This document shows, piece after piece, positions 14,216 through 47,046 of a DNA stretch of 64,000 nucleotides (position 1 is its first letter; the number at the start of each line of letters is the position of its first letter). The position numbers and the translations under genes are program-made. Source of the stretch: Candidatus Multivoradales bacterium (GTDB lineage Bacteria; Acidobacteriota; Thermoanaerobaculia; Multivoradales; Multivoraceae); NCBI GenBank assembly GCA_965223325.1, contig CBDCWI010000002.1, positions 3,872,001-3,936,000 on the forward strand. Reading direction: 5' to 3'. Under the pieces are notes generated by a model. That model made no database searches. It was not told the origin of the DNA and saw only the letters and a list, made by a program, of their open reading frames with translations.

Positions 14216-14345
14216 CTGACACCTGCTTGCTCAGTTGCAGTTGCTGTGTTGCGCGGGCGCGGACGGCCAGGTTCGCGTGGTGAGTTCGGGATTGTGAGGA
14301 TGTGCCAGGCCGCCCTTTCGGAGTTGGCTTGCGCTCGTGTGTGGG

Positions 14346-14382
14346 GTGAGGGGGGTGTACGCTCGTGCTTCGCACATCGCGC
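14346..14382 (+). repeat. Dispersed repeat core motif, copy 1
   Basis: GTGAGGGGGGTGTACGCTCGTGCTTCGCACATCGCGC, near-identical to copies at about 40.4, 40.6 (reverse), 46.85 and 47.0 kb. Confidence 0.9.
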
Positions 14383-14496
14383 GTTCATGCGCGCGCCTGC
14401 GGCGGCCTGCGCGGAAAGCTACTTCCATCCAGGCTGGCCGGCAAGGACGGTGGTCTTGCCGATGTACTCTTCGTTGCGAAGGGAGGCTAAGGGCTT

Positions 14497-15249
14497 ATGG
14501 GTTTTCGCTGGATGGTTGGAGTGACGGTGGTTATTGTTCTTGGTTGTGCTCCGGTCGTGAAGGAGTCGGCTGAGTCTTCGGGGCCGGCGGCCTCTGCCCT
14601 GCCAGGGGCCCGCTTGCAGCCGGGCACCGAGCTGGGGATCTATGCGCCGGAGCAGCACATGCCCTATGACGGGCGCTTCCGGATTCGGGGCTCTTCGATC
14701 TTCCAAGTGGGGACGCTCTCGGACCCGTCACCCTGGGACCACATGGGGGACGACGCGGCGTCGTTGCGCCCGGTGGAGGGGATCGTGGAGTTCGATGTCG
14801 ATGAGATCAACAACACGGGGACCTTTCGGGCGGCGCTCGACTTGCCCGAGGGGCACTACGTGGTGGAGCTCGAGGAGGTGGTTGAGTTTTCGCCGTGTCA
14901 GGACGGGGGCATCGCGGCGTTCATCTTTGAGCACGGCGATGCGGGGTGTGGAGACAGCAACTGGCCCAAGAGCCTCCTCTATGTCGCCGGCTGGGGCACG
15001 GGCAAGGCCACCCTCGACGGTGAACTGCTCTACCAGGACTACCAGATCCACTTCATGGTTACCCAGGGCATGCGTGATCGCGAGACACTCGAGGTCTTTG
15101 CGAATCCCGAGCGCTCGGGCCCAGGGGCCGTGAATCCGGCCGCGCAGCAGCTCGACTTCTATATCCGGAGTCCCGAGAAGAACGCCGAGAACCATCCTCA
15201 GCGTGAGGTCTTTGACCACTTCTTCGCCATGGAAGTGGCTTGGCGCTAG
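14497..15249 (+). CDS. Putative lipoprotein, unknown function
   Basis: VLGC lipobox-like; globular composition; GGGAGG SD upstream. Confidence 0.75.
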   Translation: MGFRWMVGVTVVIVLGCAPVVKESAESSGPAASALPGARLQPGTELGIYAPEQHMPYDGRFRIRGSSIFQVGTLSDPSPWDHMGDDAASLRPVEGIVEFDVDEINNTGTFRAALDLPEGHYVVELEEVVEFSPCQDGGIAAFIFEHGDAGCGDSNWPKSLLYVAGWGTGKATLDGELLYQDYQIHFMVTQGMRDRETLEVFANPERSGPGAVNPAAQQLDFYIRSPEKNAENHPQREVFDHFFAMEVAWR

Positions 15250-15364
15250 CCAGAGGATCTGAGCCGAGGGGCTATTTTCCTGGTTTTTCGCTGTTATACT
15301 CGTTTACTTGACGGGAGCCTCGGCTCCCCGTGTGTCTGGCTGGAGCCTGAAGGAGCCAAGTGCA

Positions 15365-45145: not shown

Positions 45146-46351
45146 TTACGGGTTGCGTTGGGCCAGAACGGGGGCGGTTGCCGCGAAGCGAGCGGTGTGA
45201 GTCTGATTCGCTGCGTTTCTCAGGCGGTGCAAGCGGCGAAACTCCGCATACGCCTCGCGCGCGAGGTCACCGTCGCCGCGCGCGGCGAGAGCTGAGCGGC
45301 GACGCAGCCAGGCGGTGGGGAACCCCGGGTTGAGCGCGATGGCGCGATTGGCCGATTCGAGTGCGTCGTCCAGCTGCCCGGCCAACAACTGCACGCTGGC
45401 GAGGTTCGAATGCACGATCGGTTCGGTGTCTTTGGTGTCGAGGGCAAGCAGAAAGGTCGCGCGAGCGGCGTCGAGATGACCGAGCTCGCGCTGTGCCAGG
45501 CCGAGGTTGTTGAGCGCGCCGAGACTTCGCGGGGTGATCTGGAGGGCCTGCTGCGCATAGAAGAGCGCATCGTTTGGGCGACCGGCATGGATCAGTCGTG
45601 CCGAGGCGAGCTCCCAGGTGTTGGCCAGAATCTCTCGCCAGCCGCCAAGGAGCGTCGCTCGCTCGTGGCGCTCGGCTTCGAGCGCTCGGGCATAGCGCTC
45701 TGCGTCGTGCCACTGCAGGCTGGTGCGTTTTCCGGTGCGCGCCGGAACGTTCATGTCGGCGATGCGCAGAGTGCCACCTTGTCGGATGGCGAGTGCCATG
45801 TGGTCGGAGTGGCTGACCGCGAAGGTGTTCTCGATGAGGGACGCTGCCGGATCGCGTTGATCAATCGCTTCGAGCGTTGCGTACACCGCCAGGACGGCGG
45901 CATCGCAGTCGAGCTCGATGGGTGCCTGATCGAACGGAACGCCGAGGTGGCGTGAGAAGAGGTCGATGAACAGGTGGTTGTTGCCGGTTCCGCGAAGCAT
46001 CCGGACTCCGGCTTTTGTCCAGCCGGCCTGGACTTGTTCGATGATCTGGGCGAGTTCGATCTCCTGCGTGACCACTTCGGCTGCAACCTGGTCGCGTAGG
46101 GAGGTGAATGTCTCCCAGGCTAGCTGGGCACGATCAGCGGCCTCGGGTTCGTCGGAGAGGCTTTTCTCGATCCAGAATTTGGCTTTGAGGCCCTGGTCGG
46201 CGTCGAGCAGTCGCTGGACTTCGGCCACCAGGGTTCGATGCGCTGGTGGCAAGGGGACTTCTGGAGCGGCGGCGTTGAGAGGCGCTAGCGGCAGAAGGGT
46301 GAGGGCACTGATGAGAGCAAGAGATGAGAAAGCAGCCGAATGGGTGGTCAT
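45146..46351 (-). CDS. Exported TPR protein with possible transglutaminase-like N-terminal domain
   Basis: Signal peptide; DCD..H..D pattern; C-terminal TPRs (ALNNLGLA, HSNLA). Confidence 0.7.
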   Translation of the reverse strand: MTTHSAAFSSLALISALTLLPLAPLNAAAPEVPLPPAHRTLVAEVQRLLDADQGLKAKFWIEKSLSDEPEAADRAQLAWETFTSLRDQVAAEVVTQEIELAQIIEQVQAGWTKAGVRMLRGTGNNHLFIDLFSRHLGVPFDQAPIELDCDAAVLAVYATLEAIDQRDPAASLIENTFAVSHSDHMALAIRQGGTLRIADMNVPARTGKRTSLQWHDAERYARALEAERHERATLLGGWREILANTWELASARLIHAGRPNDALFYAQQALQITPRSLGALNNLGLAQRELGHLDAARATFLLALDTKDTEPIVHSNLASVQLLAGQLDDALESANRAIALNPGFPTAWLRRRSALAARGDGDLAREAYAEFRRLHRLRNAANQTHTARFAATAPVLAQRNP

Positions 46352-46599
46352 TGGGTGCCGGCGACAACCGACTTAAGGGTGGGTGGGCCTCGCGGTCGCG
46401 GCGTCGTACCTCCGTTTCTTTGAATGTCTTGGGCCCGGTATTGGGCGGCGATGACCTATAGAAGCAAGATGTATACCAGTTATACGAGATAATGGATTGG
46501 TGGATTCAAGCTGTTGGAGTGCCAAGAATCGGGAGTTCGTGCCGGCTGTCTTGCCGTCTTTTGGTTGTTTCTGGATGTTGGATGGGTGGATGGTTGGTC

Positions 46600-46641
46600 T
46601 CGTGGTCGTGGTCGTGGTCGTGGTCGTGGTCGTGGCCGTGG
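46600..46641 (+). repeat. Hexanucleotide microsatellite
   Basis: (TCGTGG)x6 followed by CCGTGG. Confidence 0.9.
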
Positions 46642-46668
46642 TGGTGGGGGGGTGTGGGTCTGGAAGGG

Positions 46669-47046
46669 CGCCGGGTTCGAAACCTGGGGCGTGCGCCTTC
46701 CGCGACGGTCCTCGGCTGGTTCTTGGGTGCTGGTTCGGTATGGGGCTGCAGGTCTTTTGGGCGTCGCCTTGATGGTTGCCGCCTGACTGCTCCCTGGCGC
46801 ACGCCCCAGGCTCCGAACCCTCTCGTTGTATGCCCCGCCCGCTCAGTTTGAGGGGGGGTGTGCGCTCGTGCTCCGCACATCGCGCTTGCTGGTTCTTGGG
46901 TGCTGGTTCGGTATGGGGCTGCAGGTCCTTTCGGCGTCGCCTTGATGGTTGCCGCCTGACTGCTCCCTGGCGCACGCCCCAGGCTCCGAACCCTCTCGTT
47001 GTTTGCCACGCCCGCTCAGTTGAGGGGGGGTGGGCGCTCGTGCTTC
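46669..47046 (+). repeat. Dispersed repeat copies 4 and 5 (173-bp tandem duplication)
   Basis: 46715-46887 is repeated nearly identically at 46888-47046; stem arms 46673-46697 and 46796-46820; core motif at 46849-46885, truncated core at 47021-47046. Confidence 0.9.

Follow-up and report, generated by a model that had tools for sequence, protein, structure and literature searches.

The window, that is, the whole 64-kb stretch of DNA analyzed here, carries five copies of a modular repeat, all of them situated between genes in the chromosome of an uncultured, deep-branching, Thermoanaerobaculia-like member of the Acidobacteriota without close relative. Our analyses suggest, with a probability of about one half, that these copies belong to a lineage-specific, non-coding, modular and interspersed repeat family of the REP/BIME kind, intergenic in its host chromosome and with a modularity resembling that of BOX and ERIC elements; the repeat is probably non-autonomous. 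Read from 5' to 3', its members are composed of a G/T-rich piece, an optional hairpin of ~150 nt, a linker, a 40-nt core and a short tail. The copies, designated A to E along the window, span 33 kb and are distributed in both orientations over three intergenic gaps (14216-14496, 40181-40920 and 46352-47184), which agrees with the dispersed family described in an earlier note on this sequence. With five copies, the object is of an ordinary kind, has a neat internal signal and does not amount to a new type of system.

A 31-nt consensus of the core finds four exact matches in the window, at 14350-14380, 40419-40449 and 46853-46883 on the plus strand and at 40588-40618 on the minus strand; none of the three mismatches permitted was used, and the number expected from 100 shuffles is 0.00. 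A fifth core, truncated at its 3' end (47024-47046, plus strand), retains the G-run and 16 nt beyond it before giving way to unrelated sequence. The conserved block is larger than this pattern, with arms of 39-42 nt at 95-97% identity, and because conservation extends 5' of the pattern, the core as initially delimited starts 4-7 nt upstream of it. There is a conservation gradient: the cores are 90-97% identical, the rest of copy B matches copy D at 69%, and the alignable part of copies A and C comprises the core plus short flanks, nothing more. Two nhmmer profiles run over the whole window recovered the five copies at E < 0.001 and no sixth, the next matches having E values of at least 2, and neither these profiles nor an inverted-repeat scan of the window revealed another hairpin like the ~150-nt one. 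The count of five intergenic core copies in the earlier note therefore stands as four exact and one truncated, except that the copy at 47021 is no independent insertion but a tandem unit of copy D.

Copy A (14270..14385, plus strand) is a short form whose 5' module ends in ...GTGCCAGGCCGCC and is followed by a linker and a complete core (14341-14382), without the long hairpin; relative to copy B, the hairpin module is missing cleanly, exactly between ...CGCC and CTYTCGG. Copy B (40185..40470, plus strand), a long form beginning 5 nt after the proS stop codon, consists of a 5' module (40185-40236), the hairpin (40237-40385, with arms at 40237-40260 and 40361-40385), a linker, the core (40411-40449) and a tail that reaches 40470. 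Copy C (40586..40720, minus strand) is an inverted short form made of a core (40586-40627), a collapsed hairpin (40628-40672) that retains CGCCGGGTGAGAA together with a piece of the hairpin interior, and a 5' module extending to about 40720. B and C face each other core to core as an inverted pair, their arms being 39 nt long (97%); the spacer of 138 nt between them is unique, non-palindromic sequence (40450..40585) in which a terminator-like hairpin with a T-rich tail is found (40476-40500, plus strand). Copy D (46622..46887, plus strand), the other long form, comprises a hairpin (46673-46820, with arms at 46673-46697 and 46796-46820), a linker and a core (46845-46885), and its 5' module has grown into a (TCGTGG)x8 microsatellite (46600-46647). 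Copy E (46888..47046, plus strand) contains hairpin interior, a second 3' arm (46969-46993), a linker and the truncated core, which ends after ...GTGCTTC at 47046; segment 46715-46872 has been duplicated in tandem (173 nt, 96% identity), and E is the second of the two units. The two long copies align over 292 columns (40185-40470 against 46622-46906) at 69% identity (E = 2e-33), a collinear stretch of about 290 nt that is longer than the ~220 nt first claimed. No flanking gene sequence was duplicated along with the repeat in this alignment, and the flanks of B and D have diverged as much as their hairpin; the divergence of 31% indicates that both copies are old.

The stem of ~24 bp lies exactly where its arms had been quoted, and the observation that these arms changed together is borne out, every long-stem pair being kept through 5-6 double changes. 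Over the 36 consensus pairs of B and D, 72 of 72 cells are paired, six pairs are altered on both sides and none is broken, while sliding the partner by 1-3 columns as a control leaves 37-47% of cells paired. Aligned in an independent register, the long stem shows five double changes and one co-ordinated pair indel in 25 pairs, with 49/49 pairs kept across both copies; the probability of such compensation by chance is ~5e-7 by analytic estimate, for a covariation sample of two independent long copies. The inner 5-bp helix of the hairpin has two double changes, and conserved sequence blocks are present in the hairpin, whose arm length and total size are MITE-like. Wherever the stems depart from Watson-Crick pairing, in five cells altogether, the strand opposite the quoted core has a G·U pair. 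On that strand, the stem of B is paired at 24/24 positions with one bulged T and that of D at 25/25, versus 22/24 and 23/25 on the quoted strand (72/72 versus 67/72 paired cells overall), and the fold z-scores of B and D reach -3.3 and -4.1 versus -2.9 and -2.2. The G·U placement thus weakly favors the strand opposite the quoted core, the asymmetry amounting to about four independent events (roughly p = 0.1, as an estimate).

Folded as ssDNA, the core reaches -4.5 to -10.1 kcal/mol, the z-scores running from +0.75 to -2.24, and does no better than shuffles in six of eight cases (|z| < 1.6); its palindrome is weak, with 4-5 Watson-Crick pairs, and as RNA it forms a 7-bp stem only if four G·U pairs are permitted. 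Of the idea of a structure-selected element, the part that concerns the long stem is upheld by compensatory change, whereas the single-stranded folding of the core does not sustain it in those six cases. The core holds a dyad, GTGC-3 nt-GCAC, and also a GTGCAC palindrome. Its opposite strand contains GCGAAGC in three complete cores and GCGGAGC in one, so that the reading GTGC-GAA-GCAC proposed earlier applies to 3/4 complete cores, the copy at 46853 giving GTGC-GGA-GCAC. Both variants fit the consensus outlined for d(GCGNAGC) mini-hairpin DNA (PMC13037366), the sole variable base falling at the N position; the likeness concerns one short motif, a 4-bp stem within a block conserved as a whole. 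The variation among cores would suit a G·U-rich hairpin on the quoted strand just as well.

The gaps that house the repeats are bordered by PKD-domain, proS, corC-like and TPR genes and by tRNA-Val, housekeeping genes with no function in common. Four of the five copies have the same orientation as the adjoining genes, and copies A and B each have a stop codon on one side and a terminator-like hairpin on the other. A promoter and terminator scan of the three regions returned no promoter-like site, its single terminator-like site falls in the B/C spacer, and the conserved part has neither a promoter-like site nor a U-tailed terminator on either strand. Read by eye, TTGACA, 17 nt and TAATTT at 47054..47082 (plus strand) might be a promoter of the tRNA-Val pair; the scan did not call it because the second hexamer matches at 3/6 positions. 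This possible promoter directly follows the truncated core of E, outside the repeat, and marks its boundary. Both A and B are followed by TGTACTYTT, a string no more frequent than chance predicts (5 found versus 6.1 expected). When inspected by eye against consensus features, the core has no sigma-70 hexamers and no ECF-type pair, the GG/GC spacing of a sigma-54 site is off by one, and of a group II intron only a GUGCG pentamer is present. According to GC skew, the leading-strand template bears the G·U-pair strand in 4/5 copies. In the IS608-type model, the leading-strand template is the less exposed single strand.

As judged from the sequence, the repeats are non-coding, as had been proposed: indels in the B/D alignment are not multiples of three, no small ORF is conserved in the repeats, and no protein match was obtained. 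An ATG inside the core was considered as a start and rejected, since the frames part by frameshift after about 10 codons and no Shine-Dalgarno sequence accompanies it. Spurious ORFs running through D/E and B/C gave 74 + 68 word-sharing candidates in the protein database, none with E <= 1 / E <= 10; the ORFs of the window itself are absent from that database too, which indicates that these regions were not gene-called there and that such a search cannot count copies. No HUH, transposase, reverse transcriptase or integrase domain was detected in the window (41 translations with Pfam, 34 with NCBIfam), and none of these translations is a RAYT (Y1 HUH) gene flanked by the core, in line with the suggestion that the enzyme is encoded elsewhere. 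A retron msr/msd or another RT-linked RNA was likewise set aside, no reverse transcriptase domain lying beside the copies.

Searches outside the window brought up no described family that matches. Rfam 15, in which a match had been named beforehand as telling against the earlier note, identified two tRNAs over the whole window and no family for the repeats. A permissive search of the three regions gave as best hit a plant miRNA-precursor model at 51.7 bits versus 168 required, and this sub-threshold match is discounted since it reflects the generic long hairpin formed by the B/C pair. Among 185,579 species genomes, a collection without the source genome, a 21-nt degenerate core had no true match, which fits a lineage-restricted repeat; 11 single matches came from unrelated taxa, and as none of the 11 continues into the remaining core they are ascribed to chance. 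Segment 40185-40720 had no match in plasmid and phage collections (blastn, distant mode), the exact 20-nt core string is absent from a full-text corpus (~8.4 million), and among seven papers retrieved on Acidobacteria and MITEs no title or abstract describes this repeat.

BOX elements of pneumococcus and ERIC elements of enterobacteria are modular intergenic repeats that form imperfect long palindromes, are co-transcribed and have no coding capacity. The present family shares with them its intergenic location and its modules, one of which varies in number or presence, and differs by the lack of sequence similarity, the host phylum and the module content. Closer parallels are offered by the REP, BIME and REPIN elements of E. 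coli and Pseudomonas, which RAYT tyrosine transposases mobilize and where a short conserved extragenic unit is likewise accompanied by a variable neighbor sequence that keeps a hairpin; those accounts describe REPINs with REP units 94-99% conserved and spacers that are all different yet hairpin-forming (PMC3337134). Such elements, like those studied here, occur as singlets, inverted dimers and clusters, are lineage-specific, and often stand downstream of genes where they are probably transcribed (PMC3337134, PMC3733652). In GTAG-type REPs, one end of the stem-loop carries the tetranucleotide GTAG or a variant of the GYRG type (PMC3733652), whereas no GTAG is found in or beside any core, and CGTC, the tag of the other type, is in no core on either strand. 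In A, B and C, though not in D and E, a GTGG stands 3-6 nt ahead of the G-run. The stem of GTAG-type REPs, a short imperfect palindrome, is mostly of 6-9 bp; the weakly palindromic core here forms 4-5 Watson-Crick pairs, or 7 bp as RNA with four G·U pairs. GTAG-type REPs are extragenic and number tens to hundreds in a genome, and all five copies in the window are extragenic too. A REPIN joins two inverted units by a self-complementary spacer, its hairpin being made of two inverted cores, while the 138-nt B/C spacer is not an inverted repeat, the other copies are single or in tandem, and the long hairpin sits beside a single core. From Acidobacteria, among other groups, RAYT-like TIRYT genes have been reported together with repeat families that belong to them (PMC3733652; Di Nocera et al. 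2013). The TIR repeats linked to them are outlined as moderately abundant, arranged as singles, dimers or groups and in some cases provided with self-complementary tracts; like the present family they belong to this phylum and are not GTAG REPs (PMC3733652). Compared by motif and description, the TIR motif GGGGWSAS is found in one of five copies (A, 14343-14350) and shows no enrichment across the window (19 matches versus 25.8 expected); unlike TIRYT-linked systems, the window has no TIRYT gene. Classical MITEs mobilized by DDE transposases have TIRs at both ends of the element, whereas here inverted arms exist only in the internal hairpin: neither core nor tail shares an inverted repeat with the 5' module, and no target duplication is recognizable, with nothing beyond CC at the hairpin junction.

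It is tempting to propose that the nearly invariant core of ~40 nt would be the recognition site for making or keeping copies, the most likely agent being a trans-encoded enzyme that acts on a folded single strand, for instance an HUH tyrosine transposase of the RAYT/TIRYT type. The long hairpin of ~150 nt is an optional accessory module in which pairing, not sequence, is maintained, and copies change by loss of the hairpin (A and C), duplication of a tandem unit (D/E) and inverted pairing (B/C). The presence or absence of the hairpin, the 173-nt tandem duplication and the inverted dimer are rearrangements typical of such families and support the REP/BIME-like reading. The copies would probably be transcribed with their neighbors, as stem-loops in 3' UTRs or leaders. 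Mobility, enzyme, single-stranded intermediate and transcription are all inferred. If the G·U strand is the active single strand, it is the less exposed one in 4/5 copies, which argues against the REP/BIME-like reading, and the intact core and stems of B and D could equally reflect host-level selection on RNA.

By the latter explanation, which we consider rather unlikely, the host would maintain a structured RNA in multiple copies, either as a cis element (transcript stabilizer or insulator) of 3' UTRs and leaders or as an sRNA family from the opposite strand, on which a small hairpin with a GNA loop and a 25-bp rod would be accompanied by a C-rich stretch left unpaired. Compensatory changes in both the long stem and the inner helix, G·U cells all on one strand together with the lower fold z-scores of that strand, conserved blocks within the hairpin, a core conserved far above its flanks in copies otherwise 31% diverged, and the position of A and B between stop codon and terminator-like hairpin all speak for it. 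Against it, the covariation comes from two independent long copies only and the strand bias from ~4 events, the conserved part has no promoter-like site or U-tailed terminator on either strand, the G·U strand is antisense to the flanking genes in 4/5 copies, and the rod is wholly missing from the short forms A and C; moreover, core variation fits the G·U-rich hairpin on the other strand equally, Rfam offers no match and the neighboring genes have no common function. Somewhat less likely still, the repeat may work as ssDNA or RNA folded from one particular strand, the one opposite the quoted core, and form a class outside the GTAG/CGTC superfamilies. This strand would combine the GCGNAGC mini-hairpin with a C-rich tract that stays unpaired and a 25-bp rod tolerant of G·U/G·T, and would be either the substrate of an undescribed HUH-type enzyme system in Thermoanaerobaculia-like Acidobacteriota or a multicopy sRNA family with a C-rich seed.

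Comparison of A with B and D shows the hairpin cleanly present or absent at a single junction, ...CGCC | CTYTCGG; this and its MITE-like arm length and total size have led us to consider a nested composite. There, the ~150-bp hairpin would be a palindromic MITE in its own right, with TIRs of 24-25 bp bound by one transposase; it would have entered an older repeat at a fixed site, or target such a site, and the matching arm changes would mark two MITE subfamilies. This appears improbable, since pairing and covariation go on inside the arms (inner helix, two double changes), which protein-bound termini leave unexplained, and the equal divergence of flanks and hairpin in B and D fits one old composite, not two insertions; in addition, the junction repeat is at most 2 nt (CC) and the window contains no free-standing hairpin copy. 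We regard as very improbable a double-stranded site for a host protein (an operator, or a nucleoid-associated, gyrase- or IHF-type site as in BIMEs), with the core bound and the remainder a passenger: the core is indeed the only strongly conserved block, bears the short dyad and the GTGCAC palindrome and is intergenic in every copy, but its half-sites are just 4 bp, its placement relative to promoters is inconsistent, with two copies downstream of stop codons and one truncated exactly at the start of a promoter-like site, and the compensatory stems are left unexplained. That the copies are relics of local segmental duplication without function or mobility is scarcely credible. All five do lie within 33 kb and the D/E pair is a demonstrable local tandem duplication; neutrality, however, would hold neither a 31-nt core at 90-100% beside sequence that is 69% identical or unalignable, nor 49/49 long-stem pairs through five double changes, and flanking gene sequence was not co-duplicated.

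Returning to the REP/BIME-like reading, the family fits neither tagged REP superfamily and, if confirmed genome-wide, would be among the first interspersed-repeat families for the poorly known Thermoanaerobaculia-like Acidobacteriota. Confirmation would also make it useful in such genomes as a marker for strain typing and for assembly breaks. Finally, since the recognition core and the structure-only module are separable, the family, if confirmed, would be a clean system in which to ask why a repeat hairpin stays paired, be it through selection on RNA, selection on a single-stranded transposition intermediate or homogenization of the palindrome.

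The repeat is correctly observed and non-random. The earlier note had listed five intergenic copies of a core, and all five are confirmed; they share a near-invariant core of ~40 nt and are dispersed over three gaps. The 31-nt core consensus finds four exact matches (plus strand at 14350, 40419 and 46853; minus strand at 40588-40618) against none expected from 100 dinucleotide-preserving shuffles, while a fifth core (47024-47046) is truncated, ending 16 nt beyond the G-run. The conserved block reaches 5' of the 31-nt pattern, with arms of 39-42 nt at 95-97% identity, and nhmmer profiles made from the long copies or from the cores recovered only the five known copies in the window (next hits at E >= 2 and E >= 5). 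Copy A (14270-14385, plus strand) lies downstream of a PKD-domain gene (55-170 nt past its stop codon), with the next start codon 115 nt further on; copy B (40185-40470, plus) starts 5 nt past the stop of proS, which must be intact since its product has a length normal for the family (570-576 aa); copy C (40586-40720, inverted) is upstream of a corC-like gene, and copies D (46622-46887, plus) and E (46888-47046, plus) have a divergent TPR gene on one side and tRNA-Val on the other. The strand on which the core was quoted is co-oriented with the flanking genes in four of the five copies.

The setting is a bacterial chromosome segment (59-69% G+C, cumulative GC skew climbing throughout) with housekeeping genes, namely secDF, relA/spoT, pilMNOPQ, accBC, the ccm cytochrome c maturation genes, proS, the corC-like gene, a PIN-domain gene, threonine dehydratase, two tRNA-Val genes, thrS and pheST. 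Pfam searches of 41 translations from the window and NCBIfam searches of 34 turned up no transposase, HUH, RT or integrase domain. The best non-self match of ProS is 71% identical and its named matches are MAGs of Acidobacteriota or Thermoanaerobaculia, so the source is a deep-branching member of this group with no close sequenced relative. The tRNA-Val genes (47185-47261 and 47352-47428; anticodons GAC and CAC) are 88% identical over 83 nt, 167 nt apart and directly upstream of thrS, whose true start must be downstream of 47428 because the mechanical ORF (47262-49415) overlaps the second tRNA. An 84-nt copy (42700-42783, 87%) of the 3' end (43910-43992) of the threonine-dehydratase-like gene (43908-45116, minus strand) occurs 1.2 kb away from it; between the two lie the PIN-domain gene (43008-43403) and, upstream of that gene, a small ORF (43309-43602), an arrangement that resembles insertion of a toxin-antitoxin cassette at the end of the threonine-dehydratase-like gene with partial target duplication. 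Elsewhere, the 14-nt unit GACTGAGCGACCCA is repeated in tandem (35241-35323, 5.9 copies, 94% matches) in an array that follows the ECF sigma factor gene at 34022-34627 and closely precedes an ORF starting at 35344, and a 21-nt inverted repeat (4346-4366/4743-4763, 90% complementary, 376 nt apart), with no relation to the repeat family, covers most of the 506-nt relA-pilM intergenic region.

Gapped alignments reveal a modular build: a 5' module that is G/T-rich and closes with ...CGCC, a hairpin module of ~150 nt, a linker starting CTYTCGG, the core with its sharp end at ...CACATCGC and, in B and D, a tail of ~20 nt. The two long forms, B and D, reported as collinear over ~220 nt, share 69% identity across 292 alignment columns, with indels of lengths not divisible by three. 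In copy A the 5' module is followed directly by linker and core, the hairpin being absent exactly at the CGCC/CTYTCGG junction; C, also short, has lost the stem, and besides its 5' module it retains the hairpin's initial 13 nt and an interior fragment. Copy E arose as the second unit when D was duplicated in tandem (173 nt, 96%, 1.9 copies), so that one 5' arm faces two 3' arms, and the core of E stops where a promoter-like TTGACA-17 nt-TAATTT of the tRNA genes begins, a site read by eye and uncalled by the promoter scanner. The cores of B and C form an inverted pair (39-nt arms, 97%; unique spacer of 138 nt), and the two copies together are predicted to form a hairpin of very high stability (-165 kcal/mol, z = -6.0). 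The 5' module of D is a hexanucleotide microsatellite (TCGTGG x 8, 46600-46647), the same module being G/T-rich and non-repetitive in A, B and C. On the plus strand, A and B each precede a short GC-rich hairpin that runs into a T-rich tail (14437-14475 and 40476-40500; 55 and 27 nt past the core); the terminator scanner called only the latter, in the B/C spacer, as terminator-like and left the former uncalled. The TGTACT common to the sequence after A and B is at chance level.

So far as two lineages can tell, the pairing of the hairpin is maintained and its signal is genuine. When the opposite strand of the quoted core was folded for B and D by RNAalifold, 36 pairs emerged, six changed on both sides and none broken, which bears out the proposal of stem arms changing together; 72/72 cells are paired, a share that drops to 37-47% once the partners are displaced by 1-3 columns, and the observed values were reached in 8/500 shuffles. 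In a manual register, the long stem is paired at 25/25 positions in D and 24/24 in B with one bulged T, with five double substitutions and one co-ordinated pair indel (rough analytic chance 5e-7). Protein-bound terminal repeats alone are a hard-pressed explanation, since the inner 5-bp helix also has two double changes. Arm-to-arm homogenisation of a DNA palindrome could give the same pattern without selection on a folded strand.

As to which strand folds, all five G·U cells fall on the strand opposite the quoted core (72/72 paired there versus 67/72), and fold z-scores are -3.3 and -4.1 there versus -2.9 and -2.2. The opposite strand also carries GCGAAGC in three cores and GCGGAGC in one, both of which fit the mini-hairpin consensus GCGNAGC (PMC13037366). 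With ~4 independent events (p ~ 0.1 by rough estimate), this case for the opposite strand is suggestive only. The three variable core positions would equally allow the quoted strand to form a G·U-rich hairpin (as RNA, -17 to -28 kcal/mol), which, with the co-orientation with flanking genes, pulls toward the quoted strand. Neither strand of the core folds strongly as ssDNA.

The family was not recognised as a described one, and no Rfam 15 model gainsays this: at gathering thresholds only two tRNAs were found in the window, and permissive searches of the three repeat regions gave nothing credible (best, a plant miRNA-hairpin model at 51.7 bits versus 168 required). Across 185,579 species genomes, a 21-nt core pattern was matched singly 11 times, always in unrelated taxa, with 0/11 extending into the rest of the core; plasmid and phage collections yielded no blastn match to the B/C region, and the core string is absent from the full texts searched. 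The closest described kind is the REP/BIME/REPIN family, whose short unit is kept at 94-99% identity while spacers all differ yet keep the hairpin, in singlets, inverted dimers and clusters (PMC3337134); the present repeat resembles it in how it is laid out and in which parts are conserved. Di Nocera et al. divide REPs according to whether the end tag is GTAG or CGTC, and they describe, in Acidobacteria, TIRYT genes (RAYT-like) whose own repeat families share the motif GGGGWSAS (PMC3733652). Because our repeat has neither tag, carries GGGGWSAS in one of five copies without enrichment, has no terminal inverted repeats of the whole element and has a conserved unit that appears by itself to be a poor palindrome, we do not file it under any of these families.

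Our preferred explanation, to which we give a probability of roughly 0.5, is a lineage-specific, non-autonomous interspersed repeat in which the core would act as recognition module and the hairpin as structure-only accessory, its copies being diversified via hairpin loss, tandem duplication and inversion and probably for the most part co-transcribed with their neighbours. The main competitor, a multicopy RNA selected by the host, is doubtful: it would suit the age of copies that kept core and stems intact through 31% divergence, and the G·U pattern on one strand, but it sits badly with the absence of promoter or terminator signals inside the element, the existence of short forms and neighbouring genes unrelated in function. 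Improbable, too, is a nested palindromic MITE, a duplex protein-binding site looks less plausible again, and neutral duplication relics are the faintest prospect. Within the interspersed-repeat reading, copying by a Y1 HUH enzyme via a folded single strand is perhaps rather unlikely. The repeat is a new example of a familiar bacterial repeat kind rather than a new kind of system.
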